DNA from: Fidelibacterota bacterium
Lineage (GTDB): Bacteria > Fidelibacterota > SORT01
NCBI GenBank assembly: GCA_022573815.1
Contig: JACZTG010000001.1
Span: 64,882-128,881 of the forward strand
Direction: 5' to 3'
DNA length: 64,000 nucleotides
This document shows, one piece after another, positions 22,205-58,300 of the stretch. The stretch's first letter is position 1. Each line of letters starts with the position of its first letter. Under the pieces are notes generated by a model. The model saw only the letters and a program-made list of their open reading frames with translations, searched no databases and had not been told where the DNA came from. A program made the position numbers and the translations under genes.

Positions 22205-22206
22205 AT

Positions 22207-22965
22207 ATGCTTAATAAGATGATATTATACCTTCTTCTTGTTTTTATCAGCAGTGAGGCGGGCGCACAATCACCGGCAGAATTATTTCATAACGGAAATC
22301 TTCAATATGAAAAAGGTGAATACGATAAGGCGGCTGATAATTATCGTTCTATTGTCAACAGTGGGGTAGAAAGCCCGGAGGTCTGGTACAATCTCGGAAA
22401 CAGTTACTACAAACTTAATATGTTGGGACCGACAGTATTATCGTATGAAAGGGCAAAACGATTAGCGCCTCAGGATGAAAGCATTAATTATAATTTAAAA
22501 GCGGTAAATCTGTTGATAACGGATAAAATAACTCCATTACCGGAGAATTTTCTAATAACGGGAGCTCGAAATATACTGGGCTCGCTTACTTCAGCAGGAT
22601 TACTGCGATTTTTACTGACGGTTTATCTTGCCTCAATTCTGATTTACATATTAACTTTATTTATGTCTTCAGGCAGACCAAAAAGAGTATCGTATTTAGT
22701 ATTAGGAGCGCTCGGATTTTCGTTTGTTGTTACCGCCGTCATCACAGGAGTGAAGATAGATACCGATTTAAATAATAAAAGAGCGGTAGTAATGGTCACC
22801 GAGATGTCCGTCGCAAGTGCGCCCGAAGAGATAGGAGAAGAGTTGTTCATCCTTCACGAGGGTACCGCAGTCGAAATTATCGGCGGTAGTGAAAGTTGGG
22901 CGCAGATAAAGATCGTTGATGGAAAAGCGGGATGGGTGCCCACTGAAATGTTAGAAGTAATCTAA
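22207..22965 (+). CDS. batE: TPR + TM + C-terminal SH3-like domain protein BatE
   Basis: TPR repeats, central TM helices, and a C-terminal SH3b-like segment SWAQIKIVDGKAGWVP. Confidence 0.65.
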   Translation: MLNKMILYLLLVFISSEAGAQSPAELFHNGNLQYEKGEYDKAADNYRSIVNSGVESPEVWYNLGNSYYKLNMLGPTVLSYERAKRLAPQDESINYNLKAVNLLITDKITPLPENFLITGARNILGSLTSAGLLRFLLTVYLASILIYILTLFMSSGRPKRVSYLVLGALGFSFVVTAVITGVKIDTDLNNKRAVVMVTEMSVASAPEEIGEELFILHEGTAVEIIGGSESWAQIKIVDGKAGWVPTEMLEVI

Positions 22966-26158: not shown

Positions 26159-27417
26159 GACATTATTTTCGAATAGTGATCTTCTACTTCAGAAAGATTT
26201 ATCAAGTCCATAAACGCTGAAAAATTAAATAAGGTAACAAGATATCTCATATCTTTAATCCATCCGGGTAAGTATTGAGGCGGTTTAACGATTCCTTTTT
26301 GACTCAATTCATAAAGAATAGGAACATTTTCTGCTATAAGCTTGCCGGTAAACAGAAATCGCACTAATTCCGGCCTGCCTTTTTTTAAAGCAACACGAAT
26401 AAAATTATTAATTCTCACAAGACCATCGAGATAGGCTACATCTTTCGTAAATGGAGCGCCGCCCTCCATTAATCCTCCTCTTATACATCTCGCTGCGGCA
26501 TCAAAGGATTCTGGTTCACCGAAATTATTTTCGAGATAAAAATTGTAAAGATCAATGAAATCGGCTCCCTCTTCGCACATTTTAATAGCGATAGTTCTAT
26601 ATGCCAATTTTTTCACACGTATGGGATCAATCTGCTGGCTCATAAATTCGGCGAAAACAGCCAAACCTTCCTGATATATTGTTGTTCTTGGAGTTCCTTT
26701 AGCAAGAAATTTAAGCACTCCCTGAGAAGCGCCGTTCAATGTAGTTGCAAGGTGGACTTCTCCTTCGTGATGCAGCAATTGATACACTTGTCTGCGAGTG
26801 TATGTGGCGCTTTTTTTAAGTTTAATATAGTCCGCTCCGGCAGCGGCATCGGCTGTCATACGATTGGAGATAACCACTTTGATTTTTCGGTTAGGGAATA
26901 TATCCTCCAAATATGCGAGCAGCAGGTCTCTGGCATCTGCGGAATCAATCCGCTCATCGGAAAAATTCGTATCCGGATCTTCCGGAAACTCTATTCCGTC
27001 AAATCCTTTCTGTATGTGGTTTGCAAGATCCAAAATGGATACGTTTCCGCCGACATAGCAATAATCAGGATATCCGAAAAGGTCTTTCGAATACTTGAAA
27101 AAATCCATTGTACCTCTTGATTCGAGCATTCGTATTGTAAGTATATACTCTGCACAAGTGTTGTAAATCATATTTTCAATCGGATTTGATTTATCAAGTT
27201 TCGACTGAATATCAACAAACATCTCCTTGCGCTGACTCGCATTCCACCTTAACGGCGGATATTCGTATCTTGGCAATCTTTTGAATTTACGGGCGAGAAA
27301 CCGCTTTTTTACTCTGTCAGGGATATGTATGGAAGAAATTATGCGAATGGGACGTTGGGCTCTGACAAGAGCGATACTCGCGGAACGTAGAAAACTTTTA
27401 TAAGATTTCTTTTTCAT
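26155..27417 (-). CDS. DUF1704 / flavohemoglobin expression-modulating QEGLA-motif family protein
   Basis: Contains the family-defining IYQEGLAVFAEFM motif. 420 aa. Confidence 0.7.
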   Translation of the reverse strand: MKKKSYKSFLRSASIALVRAQRPIRIISSIHIPDRVKKRFLARKFKRLPRYEYPPLRWNASQRKEMFVDIQSKLDKSNPIENMIYNTCAEYILTIRMLESRGTMDFFKYSKDLFGYPDYCYVGGNVSILDLANHIQKGFDGIEFPEDPDTNFSDERIDSADARDLLLAYLEDIFPNRKIKVVISNRMTADAAAGADYIKLKKSATYTRRQVYQLLHHEGEVHLATTLNGASQGVLKFLAKGTPRTTIYQEGLAVFAEFMSQQIDPIRVKKLAYRTIAIKMCEEGADFIDLYNFYLENNFGEPESFDAAARCIRGGLMEGGAPFTKDVAYLDGLVRINNFIRVALKKGRPELVRFLFTGKLIAENVPILYELSQKGIVKPPQYLPGWIKDMRYLVTLFNFSAFMDLINLSEVEDHYSKIMS

Positions 27418-40649: not shown

Positions 40650-40679
40650 TATTAAGCTGTCTGAGCGAATTTGATTGAT

Positions 40680-41426
40680 ATGAGTGGAAAATTGCATACA
40701 ATTGAAGTAAAAAATCTCAAGAAAAATTTCAAAATCAGCAAAAATAAGCAGATTTCTGCTCTTAACGGGATATCGTTTAACGTAAAACAGGGGGAAATTT
40801 TCGGTTTTATCGGTCCCAATGGCGCCGGGAAAACGACCACAATTAAGATATTATTAGGATTTATTCCTTCGACGTCGGGCGAAGTCAGCATAATGGGGCA
40901 TGATGCCGAATCTGCGCGGTTTTGCGTGAGAATCGGTTATATGCCCGAAGATCATTCATATTATCCTCATCTTAAAGTAAAAGATTTTCTGAAGTATTTA
41001 GCTGAACTATCATTCGAATCGGGTTCCGTATCAGAGAAGGTCGATAAAGTGATTGAGAGTTTTAATCTGGAAAAAGTATATGACAGGCGCCTGGATGATC
41101 TGTCTCTCGGTTGGAATAAAAAGGTTGCATTGGCAGCTGCGTTCGTTGATGACCCTGAGATAATCGTTTTGGATGAACCTATATCGGGATTGGATCCTAT
41201 TGCTGTGGAAGAGCTTAAATCTCTTTTGAAAGAATGCAAAACTATGAATAAAACGGTACTCTTTTCTTCGCATCAGCTTTCGGAGGTAGAACAAATTGCT
41301 GATAGCATCTGTATAATTGACAAAGGTGATATTGTTAAAAAAGGTCATATTGATGAGCTGCTTTCAAGTTCCGATGCCGGCTCCTTAAAGGAACTATTCT
41401 TAAACGCGGTGGGGGAACACTCTTGA
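40680..41426 (+). CDS. ABC transporter ATP-binding protein
   Basis: Walker A GPNGAGKTT, signature LSLGWNKKV, Walker B IIVLDEP. ATG at 40680. A TTG at 40671 is an alternative start. Confidence 0.8.
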   Translation: MSGKLHTIEVKNLKKNFKISKNKQISALNGISFNVKQGEIFGFIGPNGAGKTTTIKILLGFIPSTSGEVSIMGHDAESARFCVRIGYMPEDHSYYPHLKVKDFLKYLAELSFESGSVSEKVDKVIESFNLEKVYDRRLDDLSLGWNKKVALAAAFVDDPEIIVLDEPISGLDPIAVEELKSLLKECKTMNKTVLFSSHQLSEVEQIADSICIIDKGDIVKKGHIDELLSSSDAGSLKELFLNAVGEHS

Positions 41427-42226
41427 GACGCACTTTGCAGATAGCAAAGATGACCTTCGGCATTTTCTTACGGAGACCGGAAGTTTTAATGGTGGCGGCT
41501 CTCGGGTTTTTACTCATAACCGGAGTGAGCATGGTACTTCTTAATGAAGATTTGGCTCGGCAAGTCAGCGTCGGAATACAGAAATCCCAGGGAATCGAAA
41601 TTGAAAAGAAGACTTTTATAGAAGGCAGTCTGGTTTATGCTGAAATTTTTACGGTTATCGCAAGCTTTTTGGTGGGGATGAGCCTTATCGGCAGGGATAT
41701 CAAGTCAAATTCAATTTCGCTTTATCTGGTGAAGCCGATTACAAGAGTGCAATATCTTTTAGGCAAATATCTTGGCGGAGTACTGTTATCAGTTTCGATA
41801 TTTTTATTTTATCTTATTTTTATAACTATTGTCCTCTATATAGACGGCGGGGCTGTTCAAATTCCGTTTTTTAAGATTATCTTATTGACGTTTTTTAAGA
41901 TCGCTCTTCTTTATTCCATAATTATCTTTTTTGTGCAAAAAATGCCCGGATTCGTTGCGGCATTGTTAGGCTCGGCAATATACATCGGCGGCTACTTTGC
42001 AGGGGATTTTTATCTGATGTCACTGAGCACAGAAGGATTAATCAAATACACTTCAGCGTTAGTCTATTATTTCTTGCCGCATATGGTGAATGTGAGTCCC
42101 GGTTCTGTTATGAGTTCATCAACCGACCTTTCGGTTTTTTTCCGGTGGGCATTCGTCTATGGACTATTATATTCAGGTATATGGCTATATGGGGCATTAA
42201 AGTTATTTAATAAAAGAGCGTTATGA
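41423..42226 (+). CDS. ABC-2-type transporter permease
   Basis: 267 aa with 6 TM helices. Translationally coupled to the ATPase by a 4-nt overlap. Confidence 0.6.
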   Translation: MRRTLQIAKMTFGIFLRRPEVLMVAALGFLLITGVSMVLLNEDLARQVSVGIQKSQGIEIEKKTFIEGSLVYAEIFTVIASFLVGMSLIGRDIKSNSISLYLVKPITRVQYLLGKYLGGVLLSVSIFLFYLIFITIVLYIDGGAVQIPFFKIILLTFFKIALLYSIIIFFVQKMPGFVAALLGSAIYIGGYFAGDFYLMSLSTEGLIKYTSALVYYFLPHMVNVSPGSVMSSSTDLSVFFRWAFVYGLLYSGIWLYGALKLFNKRAL

Positions 42227-42253: not shown

Positions 42254-42673
42254 ATGGCATCACCGGATAAAAGACCTGTTGTATTGGTAATCAGCGAAAA
42301 GCCGAATGAGGTGTCAGATTTGGAAACACAACTTCCCGAGAAGGGTTTCGACGTAATAATCGCTTCCGACGGTTATGAAGGTTTACTGCTCGCCCGGGAG
42401 AAAAAACCCAATCTTATCATAACAAGCTTTAAAATTAAAAGGCTTAACGGCGCGAAATTAGCAAGATTGCTCAAGTTCGACAAAAAATATCAGGACATTC
42501 CGATTATCGCTATTTTGGAAAAAGACAGTCAGGAAAATCTTGACGAAATCCATAGCTTGAGAATTGAGAGATATGTCACAAGACCTATTGACTATGACAA
42601 TCTGATAATGAACATCAGGAACCTTTTCTCGGAAAGCGAAATCGGCGGATTTATAGAAGAGGCATTGCTTTAA
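42254..42673 (+). CDS. Stand-alone degenerate (pseudo-)receiver domain protein
   Basis: CheY-like fold is recognisable, but the acid pocket DD is SE (VLVISEKP), the phospho-Asp position is Ser (LIITSFKI), the T87 position is Leu, and the K109 position is Arg (VTRPI). Confidence 0.6.
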   Translation: MASPDKRPVVLVISEKPNEVSDLETQLPEKGFDVIIASDGYEGLLLAREKKPNLIITSFKIKRLNGAKLARLLKFDKKYQDIPIIAILEKDSQENLDEIHSLRIERYVTRPIDYDNLIMNIRNLFSESEIGGFIEEALL

Positions 42674-43459
42674 TTGACTTTTAATCCTCAATATATTCTT
42701 GATACGTGGATTTTTTTGGTTGGTGCCACGGTTGGAAGCTTCCTCAATGTGGTAATTAGCAGACTGCCTCGAGGTGAATCTATCGTGAAACCGGCTTCTC
42801 ATTGTCCAAAATGCGATACGCCTGTGAAGCCTTACGATAACATTCCGATTTTGAGCTGGCTGCTTCTCAGGGCAAAATGCAGGAGCTGCAAAAAACCTAT
42901 TTCCGTACGATATCCTTTAGTTGAGTTAGGAGTGGCGCTGTTGTTTTTAGCGATGTATCAATTTTTCGGATTATCATGGGAATTTATGAGCTTTATATCT
43001 TTAGGACCGTTATTGCTTGCGGTGAGTCTTATTGATATAGATACACAGCTAATTCCCGATTCAATTTTGATTACAGGCGCCATTATAGGAGTGTTGCTCG
43101 CTCTGTTCGGTGACGCCATCTCAATAGAAAATTCGCTAATCGGGGGAGCTGTAATGTCCGGAACGTTCTTTTTGATTGCTCTATTGGGGGAAAAGATTTT
43201 TAAGAAAGAATCTATGGGATTCGGGGATGTAAAACTTTCTGCGATGATAGGCATATTTATAGGCTGGAAATTAGCTTTGTTAGCGATATTTCTATCGACG
43301 ATTTTCGGTTCTATTATCGGCATGGGAGGAATAATATTAGGTCGAATGAAATTCGGGAAACCGTTTGCGTTCGGCCCTTTTATTGCCCTTGGAGCATTTG
43401 TCAGCGGCTTGTGGGGAGAAGATATACTTCGGCTTTATATTGAATGGGCATTTGGATGA
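42674..43459 (+). CDS. pilD: Prepilin peptidase (A24 family, PilD/GspO)
   Basis: N-terminal Zn-binding tetracysteine CPKCDT...CRSC. Polytopic with catalytic Asp regions. TTG start immediately after the preceding stop. Confidence 0.8.
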   Translation: MTFNPQYILDTWIFLVGATVGSFLNVVISRLPRGESIVKPASHCPKCDTPVKPYDNIPILSWLLLRAKCRSCKKPISVRYPLVELGVALLFLAMYQFFGLSWEFMSFISLGPLLLAVSLIDIDTQLIPDSILITGAIIGVLLALFGDAISIENSLIGGAVMSGTFFLIALLGEKIFKKESMGFGDVKLSAMIGIFIGWKLALLAIFLSTIFGSIIGMGGIILGRMKFGKPFAFGPFIALGAFVSGLWGEDILRLYIEWAFG

Positions 43460-45273: not shown

Positions 45274-46674
45274 ATGCGTCGACTTTTTATTGTAGAACCG
45301 GATAGTTCGACCAGAAAGGCTCTGAAAAAAACAGGATTACGGGAAGGATGGGACGTGAACTCCGTGAGCGGTGGATTTGATGCTCTTGATTGGCTTGCTG
45401 TCCATAAAACTGAAATAGTCCTTATGAGTATGAATCTTCCGCTCATAAATCCGCTAAAAGTTTTGGAAAAGATGAAAAGACTCTGTAAGCATACTCCAAT
45501 TATCCTAATGGCTGAATCAAATAATAATTTAGATATTACTAAAGCGTTTCAGGGAGGCGCATTTGATGTTGTTTTCAAACCCTTAATTCAGGAATTACTA
45601 TCTGACTGTCTTGAAGATGCGCTGAGTTTTGTCGAATTAGTTCCATCTTTAAGTAAAGCTGAGCTGCTTCATCCGTTCCTTCAGGGATACGGCGATTTGG
45701 ACGGAACCAGCAAGGCGTCACAGAATTTATATATAAAAATAGACAGAATATTGGATTCGGATATCAGTATAATGATAAACGGAGAGAGTGGAACGGGAAA
45801 AGAGGTAGCAGCCAGAACTATTCACCGGTTCGGAAAATTGAAAGACCAACCATTTGTTTCAGTGAATTGTGCCGCCATACCGGAAAATCTTCAGGAAAGC
45901 GAACTTTTCGGATATGAAAAAGGGGCCTTTACAGGAGCGGTTGCCCAAAAAACAGGAAAATTTGAGACCGCAAACAACGGAACGCTTTTTCTTGATGAGA
46001 TAGGGGATATGAGTTTACCGCTGCAGGCAAAGATATTGAGATTTATAGAAACAGGCGAGCTGGAAAGAGTGGGAGGAATAGTCCGAAAAGATGTGAGGGT
46101 TAGATTGATTACAGCTACAAATAAGAATTTGCTTGAGGAAGTAAGAGCAAAACGATTCAGGGAGGATCTGTTTCATAGGCTTAATGTTTATCCTATAACG
46201 CTTCCATCGCTTAGAGAAAGAAGAAAGGATATACCGCTGTTGTCTTCATTAACGTTAATGAATATGATTGGGAATAGTGATAAAAATATAATAATTCCTC
46301 CTGATACATACGATTATCTCAGTCAAAATAATTGGCCGGGAAATGTAAGAGAACTCATTAATTCATTAAACAGGGCGATTGTGAGCACAAAAGACGGTGT
46401 ATTATACCCGGAGTCATTTTCGTTGAGCGAGAGTGTGGAACTCGAAGTCCAAAATGAAATATCATTGGAAAAAGAAATTAATACGATGACAATCCCTACA
46501 CTGAAAAAAGTAGAGATGGACGCTATATTGAACGCATTGAAAATCACCGACGGAAATATCAGACAAGCATCAAAAGCGCTTGGTATAACAAGAGCAACAA
46601 TGTATAACAAGCTGAAACGGTATAACATTAAAGTTAGAAGAGAAATAAGAGTTGTGAACTCTCAGGAGATCTGA
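45274..46674 (+). CDS. Sigma-54-dependent transcriptional activator (NtrC/PilR-like) with a degenerate N-terminal receiver
   Basis: AAA+ sigma54-interaction domain GESGTGKE with a GAFTGA loop as GAFTGAV. C-terminal HTH. The receiver has EP in place of DD and Ser at the phospho-Asp position (IVLMSMNLP). Confidence 0.85.
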   Translation: MRRLFIVEPDSSTRKALKKTGLREGWDVNSVSGGFDALDWLAVHKTEIVLMSMNLPLINPLKVLEKMKRLCKHTPIILMAESNNNLDITKAFQGGAFDVVFKPLIQELLSDCLEDALSFVELVPSLSKAELLHPFLQGYGDLDGTSKASQNLYIKIDRILDSDISIMINGESGTGKEVAARTIHRFGKLKDQPFVSVNCAAIPENLQESELFGYEKGAFTGAVAQKTGKFETANNGTLFLDEIGDMSLPLQAKILRFIETGELERVGGIVRKDVRVRLITATNKNLLEEVRAKRFREDLFHRLNVYPITLPSLRERRKDIPLLSSLTLMNMIGNSDKNIIIPPDTYDYLSQNNWPGNVRELINSLNRAIVSTKDGVLYPESFSLSESVELEVQNEISLEKEINTMTIPTLKKVEMDAILNALKITDGNIRQASKALGITRATMYNKLKRYNIKVRREIRVVNSQEI

Positions 46675-47885
46675 TGCCGGAATTCACTTATAAAGCTAAG
46701 AATATGAAAGGCGAAATTTTCACCGGAACTTTGAACGTTGGTTCTAAACAGGAAGTAAATGAATACCTTGATGTTCAGGAATATTTTCCATTAGAGATCA
46801 AAGAGAAAAAAGAAATCAATCAAGGTCCGTCATTTATGGACAGATTTCAAAAAATCAAAACTGAAGAGATAGCCAACTTTACCCGCCAGGTTGCTACGCT
46901 CATCGGTGCAGGCGTACCGATAGTGTCCGCATTGGACGCGTTGTATGACCAGGAGGAAAATGAACGGTTTAAAGGAATTTTAAAGACGGTAATAACCGAT
47001 GTAAGCGCCGGATCCAGCTATTCTGACGCTCTTATGAAACATCGCACAACTTTTTCGAATTTATACGTGAATATGGTACGGGCAGGAGAGAGCGCCGGTG
47101 TGCTTGAAGATGTGCTAAAACGATTGAGTGAGTTTATGGAACATGACGAATCTGTCAGAAAAAGCATCAAAAGTGCTATGCGATATCCGATAATTGTAAT
47201 GATTGCTTTAACGATGGCATTCTTTTTTGCTGTTACGTTTATTATTCCGAAATTTACGGTTATGTTTGAGCGATCAGGGGTAGAACTTCCATTCATCACG
47301 CGGATGCTGCTGGCTCTAAATACTATTATAACAGATTATTGGTATCTGGCGGCTATCGGAATAGGACTGACTATTTTTCTTGTTAAACGGGTTCTCGGCA
47401 CTCAGCAAGGAAGATTGGTTTGGGATGGATTTAAGCTCAAACTCCCGATTTTCGGAACGCTGTTCCTGAAAAATGCGATTTCGCGATTTACGCATATGCT
47501 TGAAACGCTGAATTCCAGTGGTATTCATATAATAGAAGCTCTGCAAATATGCTCGGAGACTACAGGGAATGCAGCTATAAGTCGTGAGATAGATCAAACA
47601 AGATCCGAAGTGGAAATCGGAGCAAGCTTGGCTGATGCACTTGATAAAGGAACCATTTTCCCTCCAATGACTATAAGGATGATACGGACAGGACAGGATG
47701 CGGGATCACTCGACGAAATGCTGCGAAGTATTTTCGTTCAATACGATGAAGAGGTGGATTATCTCACAAAAAGGCTTTCAGCTCTTGTTGAGCCATTGAT
47801 GACAGTGGTAATCGGAGTATTTATCCTGATTATAGCTCTGGGAATATTCTTACCAATGTGGGGAATGTACGAGGCAGTGAAATAA
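46674..47885 (+). CDS. Type II secretion system F-family platform protein (PilC/GspF)
   Basis: Two T2SSF repeats, 3 TM helices, 403 aa. Confidence 0.85.
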   Translation: MPEFTYKAKNMKGEIFTGTLNVGSKQEVNEYLDVQEYFPLEIKEKKEINQGPSFMDRFQKIKTEEIANFTRQVATLIGAGVPIVSALDALYDQEENERFKGILKTVITDVSAGSSYSDALMKHRTTFSNLYVNMVRAGESAGVLEDVLKRLSEFMEHDESVRKSIKSAMRYPIIVMIALTMAFFFAVTFIIPKFTVMFERSGVELPFITRMLLALNTIITDYWYLAAIGIGLTIFLVKRVLGTQQGRLVWDGFKLKLPIFGTLFLKNAISRFTHMLETLNSSGIHIIEALQICSETTGNAAISREIDQTRSEVEIGASLADALDKGTIFPPMTIRMIRTGQDAGSLDEMLRSIFVQYDEEVDYLTKRLSALVEPLMTVVIGVFILIIALGIFLPMWGMYEAVK

Positions 47886-49219
47886 AGAGCGCTCAACCAA
47901 ATTCATTCGCGCGAAACTTTAGTTGCGCCCCAATTTTGGCGTTTTTTTTCATTCTTCTTTCTTGTGACGGGAGAGATTTAACGGATGGCGGAAACGACAA
48001 CGGAATTACCACACAATTTAATTTAAGCGTAATGTCCGACGAGCTGAAGGTAACGTTAAATTGGGATAAAATCAGTGATGATAATCTTGATTTATATAAC
48101 ATTTATCGTTCAGAGAATGAAGGCGAATTTATTTTATACGATACAGTAAATATTGCTTTAAATACATTCAGCGACACAGAAGTGACTGCTGATTTTATTT
48201 ATGAATATAAGATAACTGCGATATTTGACGGCATCAGAGAATCCGACCCGTCAGAAATTGTGAGAATTATTCCCGGATTCACTAACCTTTGGGTATTGGA
48301 CTTTCAGGGCGATGTTTTAAGTGAATTGACTCATGATGCAGCTCATTTTACCGGAAATTTTTTTGATAACTTGACGCTGCCGGTGGCGCTCGACATCGAT
48401 GAAAGAAACGGTTATATTTACTACATTGATGGATCGAATAAGACTCTTAATTTGGTTTTCGAAGGATCTGAACCATTACTTTTGACAAATGCTGAGGGGA
48501 ACGCTCAAATGTTTTCGGATCCGACTGATGTGGATTTTGATATGCTCAGAGATGAAATTTGGTTAACAAACGGCAATTCGGGCGCTCTGTTTCATTTCGC
48601 AATGATAAACCAATCCCAATGGGTCCTTTCCGATTCCCTAAATACAGGTGGAGACGCAATATACGGTCAGCTGGATATCGCAAGAGGGGATTATTGGGTA
48701 GTGAACAGTAAGGGAAAATCAATTGAAATATTTCAGAATAGAAATGGTGAATTTGTACAGATTTCAGCCACAGGCTTTGCGAGCGGAAACCTTACCCTTG
48801 CATTGGACGCGGATAGAGCAACGGCGTATGTCATAGACAGGTCAAACGGTGATATATTTTGGGTAAAGGCATCGGGGGAAACAACTTTAATAACTAATAT
48901 TAAAAATGCATTTTTAGCTGCGGTTGTGCCTTCTACAGGCGATGTGTGGCTTATTGCTGATGACGATGAGAATGGCATCGCAGATTTAGTAAAACTATCA
49001 ATCGTAGGAAGCCGTATACTGGAAATAATGAATCTATATTCTCAGCCCTCGTGGATAGGAGTAAATCCAATTAATATGAACGTTACAGTGTTGAACACTG
49101 CTTCAGGGGAAGTTAAAATTGATGTGTTATCCAATAGCACAGGGGAAAATATAAGTTCATTCAAATCTTTGAATTTTCCCGCAATTGCCCGAATTGTAGA
49201 TAAAAGAAATAGGATTTAA
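47858..49219 (+). CDS. Lipoprotein with an FN3-like domain and a predicted beta-propeller-like C-terminal region
   Basis: Lipobox FFFILLSCDG. The FN3-like segment runs LKVTLNWDKI...YEYKITA. It overlaps the pilC 3' end by 28 nt, so the true start may be an internal alternative start codon. Confidence 0.45.
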   Translation: MGNVRGSEIKSAQPNSFARNFSCAPILAFFFILLSCDGRDLTDGGNDNGITTQFNLSVMSDELKVTLNWDKISDDNLDLYNIYRSENEGEFILYDTVNIALNTFSDTEVTADFIYEYKITAIFDGIRESDPSEIVRIIPGFTNLWVLDFQGDVLSELTHDAAHFTGNFFDNLTLPVALDIDERNGYIYYIDGSNKTLNLVFEGSEPLLLTNAEGNAQMFSDPTDVDFDMLRDEIWLTNGNSGALFHFAMINQSQWVLSDSLNTGGDAIYGQLDIARGDYWVVNSKGKSIEIFQNRNGEFVQISATGFASGNLTLALDADRATAYVIDRSNGDIFWVKASGETTLITNIKNAFLAAVVPSTGDVWLIADDDENGIADLVKLSIVGSRILEIMNLYSQPSWIGVNPINMNVTVLNTASGEVKIDVLSNSTGENISSFKSLNFPAIARIVDKRNRI

Positions 49220-49234
49220 ATTTTATAGAAGAAA

Positions 49235-51256
49235 TTGAAAGCATTTTCTAAAAACTTCATTCTTTTACTTCTGCCTTTGCTGGTTTTTTTTGTTGTCTAC
49301 ATCGGAGATACGGTATTTAAGATTAATACCGGTGTAGTAGAAGTATTAGCGTGGCTAAGAGAATTATTACTTCTTGGAGCTATCGCAGGACTTGTGCCTC
49401 TTCTCTCTTCGCTGAAGATTCTTAATCCCGGCAAGACAACAGCAAAATTCAGAGTATTACTTTTCGTTGTTATAGCATTTTTTGTAGTTTCCGTCGTTCA
49501 CAAATTTGTTTTAGTCCCAATATTCGGTACTCTCAATGGATATGTATTGATATCCATAATCTACTCTTTTTTAAGCATTATAGGGTTGATCCAAATTCGG
49601 GACCTCATCTACTTTAAAAGAAAAAAAAATACCGGCAAAGTATTTGCCGCGCTAATCATATCAATTTCTATGGTTTCTATATATGGCGGATTAAGCTCAA
49701 AAGATTTTCAGCAAATATTGGGCATAGTGATGATTCCAATCGGATTCGCAATATTCAATTCGTTTAGGGTTTCATGGATCGCTTATTTGTCTAAGAGTCA
49801 AAAATACCTGGTTTTACTCTTCTGTATGATTTTAGTTGCCGGATCATATTTTTTAAGGGATTTGGTTATAGCATCAGCATTATTTGAATATAGCTACAGT
49901 GTAGAAATATTTGTACATCTTGCCACAACTTCAATCTCTATATATACGTTTTTTGGAATGGTTGGCTTACTGCTTCACCTTCCGACAGCAACGTTATTCG
50001 ACCGGAAAATAAGAGATATTGAGTCTCTTCAAAGTCTCAGCCGGGCGGTGAGTTCGGTTTTAGATGTAAGTAAACTCACGGAGATGATTTCAGAATTCAC
50101 TGCTGAATATTCCAACTCACAATACTCGTGGTTGGTATTAAGAGAGCCTGATGATGACGAATTTTACCTTATGTCAAGTCATGGACTCACAGAAGAGCAA
50201 CAAAATAATATGAGTTTTAAAATTGACGAGGGAACAAGCGGCCTGATTTTTAAAAGCGGCGAACCTTTGATTTCTCAAGATGTGGCAAGAGAAGAAAGCA
50301 CCAAGCACTTAAAATTCTGGAATGCAGGAATAAAATCACTTATAGGATATCCCCTTATATCCGAAGCGGGAGTTATAGGTATTCTCTACGCCGGAATGAA
50401 TGAAGAATACGGATATGATAATGACGACATAGACTTAATAGGCGCATTCTCAAATCATATAGTAATCGCATTGGAAAATGCTAAATTGGTTGAAGGGTCC
50501 ATCGAAAAAGAAAGACTCGAACATGAGCTTAGACTTGCCCACGAAGTACAGCTGAATCTTCTTCCGAAGGGTGTTCCGGATTTACCCGATGATTTCGACA
50601 TCGCTGCTGCCAGTATGCCGGCTAATGAAGTTGGCGGCGATTATTTTGATTTCATTGAGATTGATGAAAATCGTATCGGACTTGTTATCGGCGATGTTTC
50701 AGGCAAGGGAACATCAGCTGCATTCTATATGGCCGAAATTAAAGGGATGATTCAAGCCTACAGCAGAATTTATGATTCACCACGTAAAATATTATGCGAT
50801 GTAAATCGCGCACTATACGGTAATCTGGACAGCCGCTCCTTTATATCGCTTACCTACGCCATTGTGGACAGTAAAAAACATAAAATGAAGTACTCAAGAG
50901 CCGGACATATGCCTATACTGCGCTATCTCGAAAAAGAGAACGAATGGTCCGAATTGGAGCCAAAAGGGATAGGATTAGGTATGGATAAAGGCGATATCTT
51001 CGATAAAGTTATCGAAGAAGCGGAAATAAAGCTTAAAAGTGACGAGCTTTATTTCTTTTACACTGACGGCGCTTCGGACGCGATGAATCATAATCAGGAG
51101 GAATTTGGAGAAGAAAAATTGAGAATATCGTTAACAAAACATTATCACTTGAGCTGCGAAGAGATAAAAGCCAACCTGATTAATGATATTTGGAAACATA
51201 TCGGCAAACAAGATGTGCATGACGATATAACGATGATTATTATGAAAATTAAGTAA
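49235..51256 (+). CDS. Membrane-anchored GAF-domain PP2C/SpoIIE-family Ser/Thr phosphatase (RsbU-like)
   Basis: About 7 N-terminal TM helices, a GAF domain, and a C-terminal PPM domain with HEVQLNLLP and EVGGDYFDF. Typical of RsbU/SpoIIE phosphatases. Confidence 0.8.
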   Translation: MKAFSKNFILLLLPLLVFFVVYIGDTVFKINTGVVEVLAWLRELLLLGAIAGLVPLLSSLKILNPGKTTAKFRVLLFVVIAFFVVSVVHKFVLVPIFGTLNGYVLISIIYSFLSIIGLIQIRDLIYFKRKKNTGKVFAALIISISMVSIYGGLSSKDFQQILGIVMIPIGFAIFNSFRVSWIAYLSKSQKYLVLLFCMILVAGSYFLRDLVIASALFEYSYSVEIFVHLATTSISIYTFFGMVGLLLHLPTATLFDRKIRDIESLQSLSRAVSSVLDVSKLTEMISEFTAEYSNSQYSWLVLREPDDDEFYLMSSHGLTEEQQNNMSFKIDEGTSGLIFKSGEPLISQDVAREESTKHLKFWNAGIKSLIGYPLISEAGVIGILYAGMNEEYGYDNDDIDLIGAFSNHIVIALENAKLVEGSIEKERLEHELRLAHEVQLNLLPKGVPDLPDDFDIAAASMPANEVGGDYFDFIEIDENRIGLVIGDVSGKGTSAAFYMAEIKGMIQAYSRIYDSPRKILCDVNRALYGNLDSRSFISLTYAIVDSKKHKMKYSRAGHMPILRYLEKENEWSELEPKGIGLGMDKGDIFDKVIEEAEIKLKSDELYFFYTDGASDAMNHNQEEFGEEKLRISLTKHYHLSCEEIKANLINDIWKHIGKQDVHDDITMIIMKIK

Positions 51257-51295
51257 CAATAAGCGTTTCAGAACGTAAATAGCAGGGAGAGATAA

Positions 51296-51652
51296 ATGCA
51301 AACAGACATAATATTGAAGAGAGAAGACATTAATGGAGTCTCGGTAATTCACGTCGGAGGATACCTTGATGCTCATACAGCAACAAAATTCGAATCGTTA
51401 ATACTCGAGTTGACCAATGCAGAAAGATATAAACTCATCCTGAACTTCAAGGAACTTGATTACATTTCAAGCGCCGGATTGGGAGTTATTATGGGAAATA
51501 TCGAAGAGATACGGAATCATGATGGAGATATCAAGCTGTCTGATATGGGCGAGAAAATTTACAGAGTATTTGATTTAGTGGGATTCCCGAGTTTGTATGA
51601 CATATTCGATACTCAGAAAGAGGCTGAAACTGCTTTCGAAAGCAAAAGCTAA
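51296..51652 (+). CDS. STAS-domain anti-sigma-factor antagonist (RsbV/SpoIIAA-like)
   Basis: 118 aa. The conserved phosphorylatable Ser context is LDYISSAGLGVI. Confidence 0.8.
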   Translation: MQTDIILKREDINGVSVIHVGGYLDAHTATKFESLILELTNAERYKLILNFKELDYISSAGLGVIMGNIEEIRNHDGDIKLSDMGEKIYRVFDLVGFPSLYDIFDTQKEAETAFESKS

Positions 51653-51666
51653 ACGGGGAGAGAATA

Positions 51667-52104
51667 GTGTCCAACAAAGATTTTATACTGAAAATTCCCA
51701 CTCGCAGCACAAACCTGAAAATAATTCGTGATTTTATAATGGATGTTTCCGACAAAGCGGGATTTGAGAACGAAGCGTGCTGTGATATTGCGCTTGCGGT
51801 TGATGAAGGATGCACAAATGTTATAAAACACGCATATAGGGGTGGCGATGGCAAGGATATTATAATAAACGTCAAGTATGATAAAGAAAAAATAACTATT
51901 ATCATATCTGATACGGGTAAAGGATTTGATTCAGAGGTTTATGAAACCCTTGATTTAGAGGAATACCTTATAAAATTGGAAAAGGGCGGATTAGGAATTC
52001 ACATTATGAAAAATACAATGGACGAGATTGATTTTAGGAAGGAAAAGGATAACATTAATTCCGTTCATATGATAAAATTTTTACCGCAGGAGAGTGCAGA
52101 TTAA
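51667..52104 (+). CDS. Anti-sigma regulatory factor Ser/Thr protein kinase (RsbW/SpoIIAB-like GHKL ATPase)
   Basis: HATPase_c N-box DEGCTNVIKHAY, G1 DTGKGF, G2 GGLGI. 145 aa. GTG start. Confidence 0.75.
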   Translation: MSNKDFILKIPTRSTNLKIIRDFIMDVSDKAGFENEACCDIALAVDEGCTNVIKHAYRGGDGKDIIINVKYDKEKITIIISDTGKGFDSEVYETLDLEEYLIKLEKGGLGIHIMKNTMDEIDFRKEKDNINSVHMIKFLPQESAD

Positions 52105-52165
52105 AAGATGAATTCCAATTCCTTTGAATAAGTAATGATACAGTCGTATTTTACTTCTGCCATTT

Positions 52166-53893
52166 ATGCAATATAATAACACAAACAGAAAATATCTCGA
52201 AGAGAGAGAGCAGGATCTGCATGATCTTTTTGAAGTAAGCAAACGACTGGATAGCTTAACTAATTTCGATTCCATTATCGGACAGATGCTTCTCTCATTA
52301 ATGGGGAGATTGATGATACAGAAATCTGTATTTATCATCATGAATGAAGATAAAGATGAACTCAGTCTCTGCAAGGCAAAAGGACTTAATCAATTTGAAG
52401 AAGGGACGGTAATAAAATACAATAAATTACCGGAAGAATTTTGCAAGTTGGAAGCGCTCAAGAAAGATGAGCCCTTGAGGGATTATTTAGAAAGCGAAGA
52501 CCTTGAAGTGTTGTTTCCTATGATGAAAGCAGGCAGATTGATGGGTCTCCTTGCATTCGGAAAAAGGTTCAAAAACGACGAATATGAGAAAGAAGAAATA
52601 AATTATGTTTCTTCGCTACTGTCTTTAACAGCTTCATCAATAGAAAACGCACTATCCATAGATAAGATAAACAGTATAAACCGGGGACTCGACAGAAAAA
52701 ATCAGGAACTCCAGACTCTTTTTGAACTGGGTAAAGAATTAAACTCCACGTTAGATCAGGAGACTATAGTAAGACAATTCGGCTATGCTCTGATGGGGCA
52801 AATGATGGTAGGCAGGTTTCTAATCTATTTAATCAGCGACGACTCTCTAAAGATATTTCACAATAAAGGTTTCAGCGGCGAGCATGTTGAGAGTATTCAT
52901 CCGTGCTTAAAAGAGCTGGAAGATTTAAACGAAATATTGCTTGTGCAGAAAAAGAAAGATAAACTAAACGGCATACTTGCCAAGGCTCAAATAGCTGCTG
53001 CTATTCCTCTCTCGATCCAGGGTGAAAATAAAGGGGTGCTTTGTATAGAGGAAAAAAGAGGGACAGAACAATTTTCTGATGACGATTTACAGCTTCTGCA
53101 TACCATGGGCGGACAGGTGATAATTTCTTTAGAAAATGCGAGACTCTTTAAGGAATCGCTTGAAAGACAACGGTTGCAGGAAGAACTGAACATTGCCAGG
53201 GAAATACAACAAGGTCTGCTTGCATCTGATTTCAATGTCTCCGGCGGGTGGAAGATATTCGGGAAGAATGTTCCCAGCCTGGAAGTTGGCGGAGATTACT
53301 TTGATGTGATTAAATTGGATAACGGTAAAATAGCGCTAGCTATCGCTGATGTATCCGGAAAGGGAGCCGGCGCCTCACTGCTTATGTCGAATCTGCAGGC
53401 AAGCTTGCGCGCCTTAGTCAATGTTGATACAAATCTTGGTTCAATGGTGGCAAGGATAAATAATATCCTGTATCAAAATACATCAGCGGATAAATATATA
53501 ACCTTTTTCATCGGGATTCTTGACCCTGACAAAAGAACATTCACGTTTTGCAATGCGGGCCATAACCCACCTCTAATATTCTCCCAAAACGGTAATGTGA
53601 CCGAGCTCGAAGAGGGAGGTTTAATAATCGGGGTGATGGCTGGAGCAATTTATAAGGTTGGAAATGTCGTGTTAGATGATGGGGACACTATCGTAATGTA
53701 CACAGACGGAATTACGGAAGCAGAAAACGAAAAAGGTGAAGAATTCGGCGAGGAAGGCTTAAAGAACCATGTAAAAAGAAACCTAAAGTCTTCCCCTGAG
53801 GAGCTGATAAACTCTATAATAGAGGAAGTAGAAAGCCACGCTGTTGATTTGTCGGCCCAGGATGATGTGACACTACTTATTTTTAGCGGTTAA
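52166..53893 (+). CDS. Cytoplasmic GAF-domain PP2C/SpoIIE-family phosphatase (second RsbU/RsbP-like)
   Basis: Two GAF-like regions followed by a PPM domain with REIQQGLL and EVGGDYFD. No TM segments. Confidence 0.8.
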   Translation: MQYNNTNRKYLEEREQDLHDLFEVSKRLDSLTNFDSIIGQMLLSLMGRLMIQKSVFIIMNEDKDELSLCKAKGLNQFEEGTVIKYNKLPEEFCKLEALKKDEPLRDYLESEDLEVLFPMMKAGRLMGLLAFGKRFKNDEYEKEEINYVSSLLSLTASSIENALSIDKINSINRGLDRKNQELQTLFELGKELNSTLDQETIVRQFGYALMGQMMVGRFLIYLISDDSLKIFHNKGFSGEHVESIHPCLKELEDLNEILLVQKKKDKLNGILAKAQIAAAIPLSIQGENKGVLCIEEKRGTEQFSDDDLQLLHTMGGQVIISLENARLFKESLERQRLQEELNIAREIQQGLLASDFNVSGGWKIFGKNVPSLEVGGDYFDVIKLDNGKIALAIADVSGKGAGASLLMSNLQASLRALVNVDTNLGSMVARINNILYQNTSADKYITFFIGILDPDKRTFTFCNAGHNPPLIFSQNGNVTELEEGGLIIGVMAGAIYKVGNVVLDDGDTIVMYTDGITEAENEKGEEFGEEGLKNHVKRNLKSSPEELINSIIEEVESHAVDLSAQDDVTLLIFSG

Positions 53894-54163: not shown

Positions 54164-55282
54164 ATGACAAGAACTGTAATAGCAGCCCTTTTTCTGCTGG
54201 CTCTTACATTTAATACCACAACATTAAAAGCTCAAGGCGAAGCTGGCGCGCCTTTTTTATTGATAGCTCCGGGTGCGCGCGCAAGCGGGATGGGCGAAGC
54301 GAATGTTGCATTAGCCGATGACGCGGTTGGCGGATTTTATAATCCTGCCGGTATTGCATGGGCGGAAGGCAAAAATCTAACATTTATGCGCGCGAAGTGG
54401 CTTCCAAATTTAGTCGATGACATCAGTTATAATTTCTTAGGTTATAGCCAATATGTAGAGGGTCTTGGTTCAATCGGAGGTCATATAATATACCTTGATC
54501 TCGGAGAACAGGTGAGAACCGGAGAAAGTTCACCTGATGCATTAGGTACCTTTCAATCTTTTATGCTTGCGGTAGCAGGCACTTACGCCGCGGATCTCGG
54601 TGAAAATTCTGCGGTAGGAATTAGCGTTAAATTCGTACATCAGGACCTGGCGCCATTTGGAGCCGGACAGGAAAAAGGAAGCGGCTCATCCTCTTCCTTC
54701 GCATTTGATGTAGGTCTGTTAGCTCGAGATAAAATTGTCGGCGGACTTGATTTGGGTATTGCTATTGCTAATATAGGTCCGGACATCGCATTTATTGATG
54801 CTAATCAGGCTGATCCGATGCCGATGAATTTAAAAATGGGTCTCTCATATATGCTCTTCGATGGAGAATTTAATTCCCTGCGAATAGTGTATGATATGAA
54901 CAAGCTTCTCGTGGCTTCATATCCTGATAGAGATTTAAACGGCAATGACATAATTGACATTGGAACTGATGAAGAAGCCCATAAAGATCCATTTTACAAA
55001 GCATTTGTTACTTCGTGGACTGATGATTCTGCAAATATTGAATGGCAGAAGATCATTCATAATTTTGGCGTCGAATATTGGTATTCAGGGGTGGTAGCGC
55101 TTAGAGCCGGCGTATTCAGAGATTATTTACTTAAAGATACAGATAATAGTGTCGCACTTTTTAAAACTGTTGGTGTGGGTCTCAGGTATAATACCTTAGG
55201 TTTCGATTTCGGCTACGTAGATGGTCCCGAAGGACATCCGATTACCAACACTATGCGTTTAAGTTTTAATCTGGCTTTTTAG
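54164..55282 (+). CDS. PorV/PorQ-family outer-membrane beta-barrel protein (type IX secretion shuttle-like)
   Basis: Signal peptide, then the family-typical PGARASGMGEANVALADDAVGGFYNPAGIAW. About 370 aa. Ends in an aromatic residue. AAGGAG RBS. Confidence 0.6.
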   Translation: MTRTVIAALFLLALTFNTTTLKAQGEAGAPFLLIAPGARASGMGEANVALADDAVGGFYNPAGIAWAEGKNLTFMRAKWLPNLVDDISYNFLGYSQYVEGLGSIGGHIIYLDLGEQVRTGESSPDALGTFQSFMLAVAGTYAADLGENSAVGISVKFVHQDLAPFGAGQEKGSGSSSSFAFDVGLLARDKIVGGLDLGIAIANIGPDIAFIDANQADPMPMNLKMGLSYMLFDGEFNSLRIVYDMNKLLVASYPDRDLNGNDIIDIGTDEEAHKDPFYKAFVTSWTDDSANIEWQKIIHNFGVEYWYSGVVALRAGVFRDYLLKDTDNSVALFKTVGVGLRYNTLGFDFGYVDGPEGHPITNTMRLSFNLAF

Positions 55283-55346
55283 AACACTTCAGCTAATAAT
55301 TTTACACAGGTGCATGGCAGTTGCCGGTCCTCAAAAAGCGAATTCA

Positions 55347-58300
55347 ATGTTGAATCTGTTTCCCGATAGAATAAAAACATTCGTTTTCGTTATAATCTTA
55401 TTTTTTGTATCAGGAATTGAAGCGGCGGAAAACGGATACAGAGTTAATTTTCATAATTATTCTTCAGGTTTAAAGAGTTCTGTTATAAGTCAAAGTGTCT
55501 CAATAGCGGCTATCAGGGTTCAGTTTGTGGAAGATGACGAAGAAGGTACGACGGGAAACGGATTGTTCGATCTTTCATCACCATCGGCAGGCGATGATTT
55601 TATATTCGATCCGCCGCCGCATAACCGGAGATATTTTCAGGCGCATTTGGAATCGCTTAACAATTATTTTAATTCGGTAGGTCAATCCCGATGGGGAATT
55701 GGTGGGATCAATTCAACCGTATTCCCGCTTCTAACGGATAGCGTGTATGATCTTCAAAATCCGATGCGGTTTTATAGCCCGAAATCAGATGAAGAAACCA
55801 ATGATAAACGGTTGGCGCAGCTTTTCTACGAATCTGTAATTTTAGCTGCGGATGATGCGGGAAATTACTCGGGAACTGACTTAGTTATTGTTTTTCATGC
55901 TGGAGTTGGAAAGGATTTTACATTTCAACTCGACCTCACACCGTTCGATATTCCCTCGGCTTTGCTCGACAGAGATTTTCTTCAGCTGAATTTGGCTTCT
56001 TCTGAATTTTCCCAATTAGAAAGTTTGGGAGTTACCACCGGATTGATACTTCCGGAAACACAAAGTCAGGATGGTTTCAATATTGCGCTAAATGGTACTA
56101 TTACTTTGCTGTTCGGCAGGTTTTTAGGATTACCCTCTTTATGGAACACGGATACTGGCGACCCTGGAATCGGAAAATGGGGATTGATGGATCAAGGTTC
56201 AAATAATATGGATGGAGCTGTCCCAGCTCGCCCGAGCGCATTCAGCAGAGTATTTATGGGATGGGAATTGGATATACCAGCATATCCGAGTGAAGGAAGA
56301 GAAATATTCACTGCCGCTGACGAGTTTGGCATTAAATATTATTCTATTAAAATCAATTCAGATGAATATTTTTTGATTGAAAACAGAAGCAGAGCTACAA
56401 CAAATAAAACGGGATTCGAAGAGCTTATAGTCGGAAGAGATACCGCTTATGTAAAGTTTGATTCCTTAGGAAGCGGCGTAATAGTTAGTGTATCAAATTA
56501 TGATGCGGGAATTCCCGGCTCGGGACTGCTTATCTGGCATATAAATGAATCTGTCGTGAAAGAGTTTTACTCCACAAACCGGATTAATACAGATAAAGAA
56601 AACAGGGGAGTAGATCTTGAAGAGGGGGACGGTTCGCAGGATATAGGAGAAGAATTTGGATTCTTGCAGCCCGGGGGCGGTTCTGAAAACGGCACGCCTT
56701 GGGATCCTTTTTACGCTAAGAATCCCGCCTGGTATTTCCAAAATCCTGATTGGGAAGCGGATGCTGATTCCACAGTGGCATTTACGCCTGAGACCAGCCC
56801 AAACAGCAATAGTAACGCAGGTGGCAAAACAGGAATTAGTATAACAAATATTTCCAAAGCGGGTTTAAGAATGACCTTTGATGTTGCTTCAAGCTTTCTT
56901 GCTGTGGGGTTCCCATTATATCTGGGCGCCGGAGCGGGAAGGAGTTTTCCTGCAGTTGCCGACTTAGATGGAGACGGAAATATAGAGATATTAGTGGCAA
57001 CGTCGGATGGAACTATACACGGCTGGACACTGATACTCGATAGACTTCCATTAGTTTACTTGGGAGGTGGTGATACAGAAAATATAGTATCCACATTCGG
57101 AAATGTAACTACAAGCCATAGAATCGGAATATTCGCAGATTCGGTAGGTTCTATTAGTAATATCGCAATAAGCGACATAGACGGAGACGATACACTTGAA
57201 GTTGTGGTAGTTACTAAAAATGGCAAAGTGATAATGTATGAGCCGGAAGAAGGGGCGGTTATTGATAATCGCGCCGACAGCGCCTGGTCAATCTATCTTG
57301 GCGAAGAAGTGTTAGCAACTCCAATTGTATCCAACGGAAGAGTTTATGTAGGCAGCTTAAGCGGCACAATTTCGGAGATTAACAGCAGCGGGAATCTGAT
57401 TAATTCGACTGCATCCGCTATTGAAATTCTAAGTATGACATTACCGGATGGTGAAGCTGTCAAAGGTTCAAACGACAATATTATTTCCGGTAATTTTTTA
57501 CAGAACCGTAAATCGCTTGGTTCTGAACCCGAAGATTTAATTGTGACTATTTCCGCGAAAGGAATTGTGAGGGTTTTTATCGGTACAAACACGGATCTGG
57601 TCAACGCTGATTATGAATATGATATGGGCGACAGTGTACTTTCCTCTCCCGCAATGGCAGATATAGATAAAGATGGTGAACTTGAGATAATAATAACAGG
57701 GAATAATAAACTTTGGGCGTTTAACGGGAATTTGACACTTGTGGAAAATTTCCCTGTCACAATCGGTATTCCGGAACCGGTCGGTAAGATATTATCGTCG
57801 CCTGTTATAGGAGATGTTGACGGCGACGGTTCACCGGAAATAATTTTCGGAGCTCCTGACGGAAAGATTTACGGTTATCATTCGGATGGAACTGTGGCGG
57901 AAGGTTTTCCTCTTTCAACGGGAGCAAGCGTGAGCTCAACGCCTGTTATAGTTGATGCGATTCCGTCAGGCGCAATGGAAATCGTGGCAACGAGTGACGA
58001 TGGTTGGCTGTATATGTGGTCTGTGCCCGGTAACGGAACAGCTGGAAATACTCCGGCTTATCTTCCGTGGAGCGCATTTGCCGGCTCGAACGAAAGAACA
58101 AATTTTGCTCCCGCTTCACCGAGTTCACCTCCTGTAGGAATAAATGAACTGCTTGCTCAGGATAAAGTGTTCGCTTATCCGAATCCCGTGGAAGGGAGTG
58201 AAGTGCGGATACGGTATTTTGTTAATCAATCCGGCAGTGTTGATATAATGATATTTGATATGGCAGGTGAGTTTGTAACAAAATTGCTTAACTCCAACAT

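Follow-up and report, generated by a model that had tools for sequence, protein, structure and literature searches.

An aspartate-less stand-alone receiver conserved in a type IV pilus gene block of a Marinimicrobia-type clade, with a PilB-type ATPase as its likeliest partner

Introduction

What can a receiver do in a pilus gene block when it has no aspartate to phosphorylate, no output domain and no kinase nearby? This question is raised by a 139-aa CheY-like protein encoded in a 64,000-nucleotide stretch of a Fidelibacterota bacterium (assembly GCA_022573815.1, contig JACZTG010000001.1, positions 64,882 to 128,881 of the forward strand). Names carried by identical and near-identical proteins and loci assign the genome to Candidatus Marinimicrobia (Neomarinimicrobiota, SAR406), and the bacterium is marine and uncultured. 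The whole stretch is here referred to as the window, its GC content is 40.8%, and all positions below are window positions unless a locus is named. A sequence-only reading had described a degenerate receiver directly upstream of pilD and proposed it as a dedicated adaptor for the downstream machine. The observation itself stood, but that reading overlooked the C-terminal tail of the protein, a second Asp-less receiver in the neighbouring activator, the absence of a kinase and a set of relatives that share a hallmark motif. By comparative context, the likeliest partner of the protein would be the PilB-type ATPase, not the abutting PilD. We tentatively favour, at not quite an even chance, the explanation that a kinase-independent pseudo-receiver regulates or adapts the type IV pilus (or type II secretion-like) ATPase PilB by direct binding. 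The features on which this explanation turns are the following, all on the plus strand.

42254..42673, plus strand: stand-alone Asp-less pseudo-receiver gene (139 aa and stop), identified by open reading frame, ribosome-binding site, PF00072, AlphaFold2 (AF2), Foldseek and dN/dS

42425..42427, plus strand: AGC codon of Ser58 at the phospho-Asp position, placed by the CheY-anchored and PleD alignments

42464..42508, plus strand: residues 71-85, RLLKFDKKYQDIPII, hallmark patch (alpha3 end and alpha3-beta4 loop), invariant in the pseudo and canonical clades

42626..42670, plus strand: residues 125-139, FSESEIGGFIEEALL, clade-specific invariant C-terminal tail and candidate docking motif, from conservation, selection and predicted local distance difference test (pLDDT) values

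42656..42662, plus strand: GAAGAGG, likely pilD ribosome-binding site inside the tail codons, from sequence and from the junction compared with loci L001-L003

43495..45249, plus strand: PilB-type assembly ATPase, proposed here as the target, whose N-terminal region carries an MshEN c-di-GMP-binding motif, from Pfam and NCBIfam

Results and Discussion

A complete receiver fold with a degenerate pocket

The open reading frame starts with ATG behind a GAGGA ribosome-binding site. Pfam PF00072 (Response_reg) matches its product with 43.8 bits (cutoff 30.2) over 110 of 111 profile positions and is the sole Pfam match, so that the protein is a single receiver without an output domain; NCBIfam PhoB and YycF match the receiver part only and far below cutoff. 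With phmmer against PDB sequences, the receivers of PleD, PhoP, DivK and VicR were found at E ~1e-10. The AF2 model, computed from a 34-sequence alignment, has a mean pLDDT of 86.8, a predicted template modelling score (pTM) of 0.82 and the (beta-alpha)5 topology, with strands 9-13, 33-37, 54-58, 84-88 and 106-109 alternating with five helices. Foldseek against the PDB superposed it on RR468, DivK, VicR and RpaA at a TM score of ~0.8 and a root-mean-square deviation of 1.1-1.3 A. Model and structure search thus agree on the receiver fold that had been claimed from the letters, and a fold of another kind, one of two outcomes named earlier as refuting that reading, was not obtained.

In the CheY-anchored alignment, D12 corresponds to S14, D13 to E15, D57 to S58, T87 to L88 and K109 to R110, and the PleD alignment agrees. 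Both alignments bear out the substitutions reported earlier (SE for DD, Ser, Leu and Arg), and "four of five replaced" was a fair description: all five catalytic positions are off consensus, with D13 to Glu as the sole conservative change. The position of CheY Y106 is retained as Y107. The degenerate pocket is kept in 48 homologous protein clusters of 53-100% identity, which come from Marinimicrobia-type metagenomes wherever a source is named. In CheY numbering these orthologues show [STN][EDG] at 12/13, [STA] at 57, [LIV] at 87 and R at 109; position 57 is mostly Ser, with Thr in P0043 and Ala in P0046 and P0047. An exhaustive profile search added P0099 (44% identity, on a contig of 52% GC), which has D-G, Ser and Leu and is the only member of the pseudo clade to keep Lys at the K109 position. 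Its pattern reduces the constant features to the absent Asp and a hydrophobic residue for Thr. Down to 44% identity no orthologue has a phospho-Asp, and the next homologues, at 37% identity or less, have the intact pocket [DE]D-D-[TS]-[YF]-K.

By the Nei-Gojobori method, dN/dS is 0.065 between the window and L001 and 0.087 between L002 and L003; for the other locus pairs synonymous sites are saturated, with pN ~0.15. The receiver reading frame is intact in every locus. Since the orthologues are uniformly Asp-less and under purifying selection, the protein is a fixed pseudo-receiver, not a decayed copy, and the decayed gene, the other refuting outcome named earlier, was ruled out on these two grounds. 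Judged by its sequence, it is a member of the pseudo-receiver or aspartate-less receiver (ALR) class as defined in a 2025 review (PMC12632262). Pseudo-receivers make up about 6% of bacterial receivers. The review puts the described bacterial examples at only about 20 and says of their on and off switching that it "remains a mystery" (PMC12632262).

The family itself is narrow and carries the annotation "response regulator" only. The exhaustive profile search, over 1.84 billion representatives, for distant tail-bearing relatives, whose listing was dominated by multi-receiver proteins, returned only P0016, P0077 and P0099 as single-domain matches (full-length or fragment).

An invariant C-terminal tail

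The most conserved segment of the pseudo-receiver is not the pocket; it is the C-terminal tail, SESEIGGFIEEALL / NIRNLFSESEIGGFIEEALL, which is nearly invariant down to 53% identity and still recognisable as NLVSESAISGFIDETLL in the 44%-identical P0099. Over the last 20 codons, four loci show 0 nonsynonymous against 5-13 synonymous differences per pair. In the AF2 model alpha5 extends to residue 133 with dropping confidence, and residues 130-139 have a pLDDT of ~41 (disordered). Low confidence of this kind is typical of short motifs that become folded when they meet a partner, and from the model we regard the tail as a candidate for such a motif. Part of it, FSESEIGGFI, can be compared with the FliM-N/FliY-N motif LSQxEIDALL: S, E, I and the hydrophobic positions agree, GG replaces DA, and the Glu is Ala in P0099. 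In FliM this motif is the disordered peptide that binds CheY (PMC6700473, PMC9126983).

The pilD ribosome-binding site embedded in the tail codons does not explain their conservation, because synonymous differences abound and nonsynonymous ones are absent. A constraint from this or any other DNA element was accordingly rejected: the synonymous sites of the last 20 codons diverge as much as those in the rest of the gene (pS 0.4-1.0), with no amino-acid change.

Canonical relatives encoded next to PilB-like genes

A metagenome scan seeded with the family alignment gave few added members and many stand-alone receivers at 33-39% identity. These canonical relatives have the size of the pseudo-receiver and no tail; all carry DD-D-T-[YF]-K, and the patch common to them is [YF]K[IV][SC]RLLKFDKKYxxIPI. 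Residues L72, L73, K74, F75, D76, K77, I82, P83 and I84 are invariant in both clades. The pseudo clade has changed in its pocket, at D+4, where K62 has taken the place of Pro, and in the alpha4-beta5 region (I99, I104), and it has gained residues 126-139. The canonical receivers with the hallmark motif are uncharacterised and were found in metagenomic bacteria only.

At 21 of the 29 determinable metagenome loci, the gene next after the canonical receiver belongs to the PilB/T2SSE family, usually with an overlap; these loci represent about five receiver clusters at 70% identity, on contigs of 28-52% GC. The link to the pilus machine that had been drawn from gene position alone is strengthened in this way, as the nearest canonical relatives, which also stand alone, are encoded immediately ahead of PilB-like ATPases. 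In the pseudo clade, PilB (with its MshEN motif) is the second gene downstream, with pilD intervening in all loci.

In three loci a histidine kinase precedes the canonical receiver. In L040 a histidine kinase with PilZ is followed by the receiver, PilB (MshEN and T2SSE), PilC, a pilin and PilM/N, and in L053 the receiver-PilB pair comes after a hybrid kinase and another receiver. L004 (5655-15731) has a dense set of signalling genes in its pilus cluster: pilD, a PAS histidine kinase, the receiver, HDOD, PilB, a second receiver, a PilB-like protein without Walker A, an activator whose receiver is canonical, and PilC. Identity to the counterparts in the window is 47% for its PilB, 46% for PilC, 40% for PilD and 37% for the activator. 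As a separate observation, the kinase directly 5' of the pair in L040 (8425-9999) carries the PilZ domain at its C terminus, a hint that c-di-GMP feeds into the kinase as well as into PilB (MshEN).

A very abundant pair was also noticed in gut and rumen bacteria (L043 9992-11747; also L041-L061, L066 and L068), in which a canonical RLLKFDKKY receiver overlaps a PilB-like protein of ~460 aa. No pilC was detected on the fetched L043 locus, the one annotated locus of its group. The ~460-aa partners, like the second partner in L004, have no Walker A and keep the MshEN/GspE-N region, and the ~460-aa protein appears from its sequence to be a pseudo-ATPase. Because these partners lack Walker A, the MshEN/GspE-N region is the constant feature of the partner proteins.

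A second Asp-less receiver and no histidine kinase nearby

The pilus block of the window encodes one more receiver, in the activator gene.

45274..46674, plus strand: PilR-like sigma-54 enhancer-binding protein with an Asp-less receiver, from Pfam and an NtrC/CheY alignment

This receiver has Pro in the acid pocket, Ser52 at D54, Ala at the Thr position and Ile/Val at the aromatic switch, with Lys retained; the Walker A and GAFTGA motifs of the activator are intact. Ser and Ala are fixed in 16 of 16 orthologue clusters (65-100% identity). Nearly all of the listed proteins at 43% identity or less have an intact [DE][DE]-D-[TS]-[YF]-K, and P0242 and P0243 are degenerate in other ways. As both pseudo-states are fixed, both receivers of the pilus block have lost phosphotransfer chemistry across the same clade.

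A four-sequence histidine kinase profile, which finds 49 histidine kinases elsewhere, found none either in the window or in the loci of the pseudo clade, although the rest of the genome may still encode one. Neither phmmer nor Pfam annotation (window open reading frames of at least 120 aa and the 118-aa STAS frame) gave a HisKA/HATPase_c kinase in the window, and no PilS-type kinase is present beside the activator.

Gene neighbourhood

The gene order in the window is mutL, miaA, ABC ATPase, ABC-2 permease, receiver, pilD, pilB, sigma-54 activator and pilC, followed by a 453-aa protein, a GAF-PP2C, a STAS protein, an RsbW-like kinase and a second GAF-PP2C. The neighbours not yet listed are as follows.

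40671..42226, plus strand: ABC ATPase (40671-41426) and ABC-2 permease (41423-42226), from Pfam and from synteny in L001-L003, L034, L036, L038 and L039

42674..43459, plus strand: prepilin peptidase PilD (A24_N_bact and Peptidase_A24, Pfam 123 and 73 bits), from Pfam and junction spacing

46674..47885, plus strand: PilC/GspF platform protein (T2SSF 205 bits; GspF and PilC NCBIfam matches)

49235..53893, plus strand: partner-switching set of GAF-PP2C, STAS, RsbW-like Ser kinase and GAF-PP2C, from Pfam and NCBIfam

The full order is kept in L001-L003, and the core of ABC-2, receiver and pilD also in L034 (the Ala-containing variant) and L036 (P0099). The receiver gene therefore does not head the block as had been stated: the ABC ATPase and ABC-2 permease precede it, in the window by 27 nt, and this arrangement recurs in every family member examined. 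The PilB-type ATPase is supported by T2SSE (461 bits), MshEN (62 bits), TIGR02538 PilB (625 bits) and the NF053729 c-di-GMP motif (50.3 bits, cutoff 38), and has the Walker A GPTGSGKT.

The 0-nt junction between the receiver and pilD needs a qualified reading. The receiver ends with TAA at 42671-42673 and pilD starts with TTG at 42674; both frames are the same, so the spacing of 0 nt is partly a mechanical effect of open reading frame calling. The start itself is backed by L002 and L003, where PilD has 261 aa and an ATG 1 nt past the receiver stop, by L034, where TTG overlaps the stop by 4 nt (spacings across loci of 0, +1, +1 and -4 nt), and by GAAGAGG 11 nt upstream of the TTG. A read-through fusion of receiver and PilD, conceivable from the shared frame and single TAA in the window and L001, was ruled out, as the frames differ in L002 and L003 and the genes overlap by 4 nt in L034. 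Compact spacing is common here, and the pilC start shares a base with the activator stop at 46674.

Two observations concern the same junction. A 114-aa antisense open reading frame (42458-42802, minus strand) spans it and is most likely spurious, because the codon-level selection pattern fits the plus-strand genes. In the 52% GC relative L036 (1434-2061), a stop splits pilD after the N-terminal Cys-rich domain, by assembly error or real disruption.

In the scan for sigma-54 -24/-12 promoters, 20 matches with at most 2 mismatches were obtained against 19.6 expected, and sigma-70 promoter and terminator scans were not above shuffled controls. The Rfam and tRNA sweep gave nothing close to the receiver locus. 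No prepilin motif of the G-F-T-L-I-E type was found in window open reading frames of at least 40 aa, and the 64-kb window has no pilin, secretin, PilMNO, GGDEF/EAL enzyme or Hanks kinase. The genes for the pilus substrates and for the other parts of the machine lie outside it, and the remainder of the window is housekeeping.

In the partner-switching set, the STAS protein carries the phospho-Ser motif DYISSAGLG and sits immediately upstream of the RsbW-like kinase gene. In L002 and L003, too, the first GAF-PP2C comes after the pilus block, to which the set is possibly linked. There is no sigma factor gene near it.

Proposed mechanism and its alternatives

The ancestors of the family would have been ordinary stand-alone receivers with the RLLKFDKKYxxIPI patch, encoded upstream of proteins with an MshEN region and, where PilB is full-length, downstream of a histidine kinase. 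In the Marinimicrobia clade the kinase would have been lost and the phospho-Asp and Thr (and Lys in most members) replaced. The change of Thr to Leu, Ile or Val should disable Y-T coupling and fix the alpha4-beta5-alpha5 face in one state; the T87I mutant of CheY can be phosphorylated and is nevertheless dead in signalling. Structures of T87I CheY are cited in PMC9126983. The ancestral contact patch would be retained as the dependence on phosphorylation ended with kinase loss, and the new, invariant, disordered acidic-hydrophobic tail would add a further, probably constitutive, docking to the partner. From these comparisons we infer PilB as the partner and the patch and tail as the surfaces that would touch it; whether PilB would be activated or inhibited is likewise a matter of inference.

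Several points weigh against this explanation. About five receiver clusters behind the 21 loci mean that the number of independent lineages is modest, and 8 of the 29 canonical loci have no PilB gene downstream. P0051, a canonical receiver with the motif RLLKFDQSY, lies outside any pilus context, in a cluster of KaiB, KaiC-like protein, hybrid kinase and receiver beside CheC/CheD (L035 2757-7454), so the hallmark motif also occurs in receivers that are not PilB partners. The putative orthology of the pseudo clade to the PilB-linked canonical clade rests on 33-39% identity and the motif. Moreover, pilD and not pilB abuts the receiver in the pseudo clade, where the ABC/ABC-2 pair is equally constant.

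The last point leads to the neighbours. The pseudo-receiver could be a cytoplasmic subunit or regulator of PilD or of the upstream ABC-2 exporter, held in a fixed ratio by translational coupling: the order ABC ATPase, ABC-2, receiver and pilD is found in every member, down to 44% identity and from 41 to 52% GC, the receiver-pilD junction is as tight as described above, and the pilD ribosome-binding site lies within the tail codons. Yet in L004 pilD stands two genes upstream of the receiver, no ABC pair lies beside the other canonical receivers, and tight spacing, as at 46674, is common in this compact genome; to our knowledge there is no precedent for a receiver that regulates an A24 peptidase. 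We judge this unlikely. A partnership with the sigma-54 activator, also on the unlikely side and in our estimate only slightly less so, would have receiver-receiver contact, or the tail in the alpha4-beta5-alpha5 groove, control its oligomerisation in replacement of PilS-type input. It would account for two receivers that are Asp-less with Ser at the phospho-site across the same clade, while the homologues of both in L004 are canonical with a kinase alongside, and the tail, predicted to be disordered like FliM-N, loosely fits the FliM pattern Phi-S-[QE]-x-E-I-x-x-Phi-Phi. The FliM match is weak, however, given GG for DA and the key Glu as Ala in P0099, and in the AF2 model residues 125-133 prolong alpha5 and do not form a free peptide. 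Furthermore, canonical relatives (the L040 and L043 group) pair with PilB-like genes with no activator detected on the fetched locus, sigma-54 promoters are not above chance, and the pilin gene is absent from the window.

It is also conceivable, at a low probability, that a Ser kinase phosphorylates Ser58, together with Ser52 of the activator, and that the neighbouring GAF-PP2Cs remove the phosphate, which would restore a phospho-switch. Nearly all members of both families have Ser (once Thr) at the site, a GAF-PP2C follows the pilus block in the window, L002 and L003, an RsbW-like Ser kinase (51667-52104) lies 9 kb downstream, and an ALR survey raises Ser phosphorylation, calling the idea speculative and untested (PMC4395418). 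But P0046 and P0047 have Ala and still keep the tail and synteny, the phosphate-coordinating Thr is Leu, Ile or Val, the RsbW-like kinase has its normal STAS substrate immediately upstream, the window is without a Hanks-type kinase, and Ser is among the commonest replacements in any case, at 15% of ALRs (PMC4395418). If true, these would be the first receivers switched by phosphorylation at the former phospho-Asp position. That the protein is only a functionless or decaying remnant of a response regulator after kinase loss, as five changed catalytic positions and no kinase nearby might suggest, we scarcely credit, in view of dN/dS values of 0.065-0.087, an intact frame everywhere, conserved substitutions and the gain of an invariant tail. 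Direct, kinase-independent action on PilB remains the explanation that we prefer.

Comparison with known systems

The nearest functional precedent for binding to PilB is EmvR of Xanthomonas oryzae pv. oryzicola, an orphan single-domain receiver that binds PilB and inhibits its ATPase non-competitively, by an allosteric effect (PMC11973254). EmvR is likewise a stand-alone receiver without an output domain, and PilB binding is the mechanism proposed here; it is canonical, though, needs Asp15, Asp59 and Thr87 and is fed by ColS (PMC11973254). The window protein has neither those residues nor a nearby kinase, has an invariant tail and is encoded inside the pilus operon. It cannot be a phospho-switch of the EmvR type, and by analogy its mode of action is probably that of the stand-alone receivers which bind PilB, minus their input by phosphorylation.

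FrzS and ChxR had been named earlier as examples of such proteins. ChxR, a DNA-binding regulator of the OmpR type, is a poor analogue, as the window protein has only PF00072 and no C-terminal winged-helix DNA-binding domain. FrzS fits in part. Its receiver is followed by a long coiled coil at the C terminus, and it serves the TPR protein SgmX as a polar beacon, whereas the window protein has 139 aa and only a 15-residue tail after alpha5, so that the architecture does not agree. The Asp-less receiver and the pilus role do: the FrzS pseudo-receiver of Myxococcus xanthus recruits a pilus activator through its alpha3-beta4-alpha4 face (PMC12632262; also PMC9811614), which is close to the invariant alpha3/alpha3-beta4 region of the window protein. 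In structure and sequence searches, the FrzS receiver 2i6f was Foldseek rank 36, with a phmmer E value of 2e-5 versus 6e-11 for PleD, a sequence similarity no greater than that to ordinary receivers.

DrdR of Xanthomonas campestris, a tandem of two receivers, binds PilB and PilT and alters their ATPase activity (PMC13507683). It is also an output-less receiver protein that contains a pseudo-receiver, but this is truncated to (beta-alpha)4 and DrdR needs its phosphorylatable second receiver, while the window protein is one complete (beta-alpha)5 domain and Asp-less. Within the ALR class, the reported trends are Ser at the Asp position (15%), a hydrophobic residue for Thr with Tyr kept, and loss of Pro at D+4 (PMC4395418, PMC12632262). 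The window protein, recognised by PF00072 and without the phospho-Asp and other pocket residues, follows them. That class is defined by absences and not by a mechanism, and the window family adds to it the tail, the genomic setting and the second Asp-less receiver. The canonical RLLKFDKKYxxIPI receivers differ in turn by their intact DD-D-T-[YF]-K, by having no tail, by abutting the ATPase gene and by following a kinase in L040, L053 and L004.

Pseudo-receivers that influence a pilus motor through protein contact are already known, and a stand-alone receiver that acts on PilB has been published. The new details are the tail, the pairing with a second Asp-less receiver and the derivation from an unstudied module of kinase, receiver and PilB. 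The reach of the case is limited by a host that is not in culture, a partner that is deduced, and a general principle that is already in print. It offers a natural comparison between the canonical kinase-receiver-PilB module of several lineages and the Marinimicrobia module, in which the kinase is lost, both receivers are Asp-less and a 15-residue tail is present; this comparison indicates the alpha3-beta4 patch and the tail as the surfaces of interest. It also brings out, in gut and rumen bacteria, a large and so far unstudied group of receivers whose PilB-like partners in some cases lack Walker A.

Other features of the window

Some further genes of the window deserve mention. The 453-aa protein after pilC (47858-49219, plus strand) has no family match and a lipoprotein-like N-terminus (...LLSC), and it is kept directly after pilC in L002 and L003 (~400 bits). 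A 420-aa protein (26155-27417, minus strand) is matched over its full length, at E 5e-113, by Pfam MATCAP (microtubule-associated tyrosine carboxypeptidase), a family that takes its name from a eukaryotic enzyme. The region 54164-61399 (plus strand) has features of type IX secretion, beginning with a PorV-like protein (54164-55282), continuing with a 1040-aa FG-GAP/beta-propeller protein with Por_Secre_tail, and then a 988-aa PD40/peptidase-like protein. Finally, a Bat-type operon at 17709-22965 (plus strand) consists of two BatA/VWA proteins, a TPR protein, BatD and another TPR protein.

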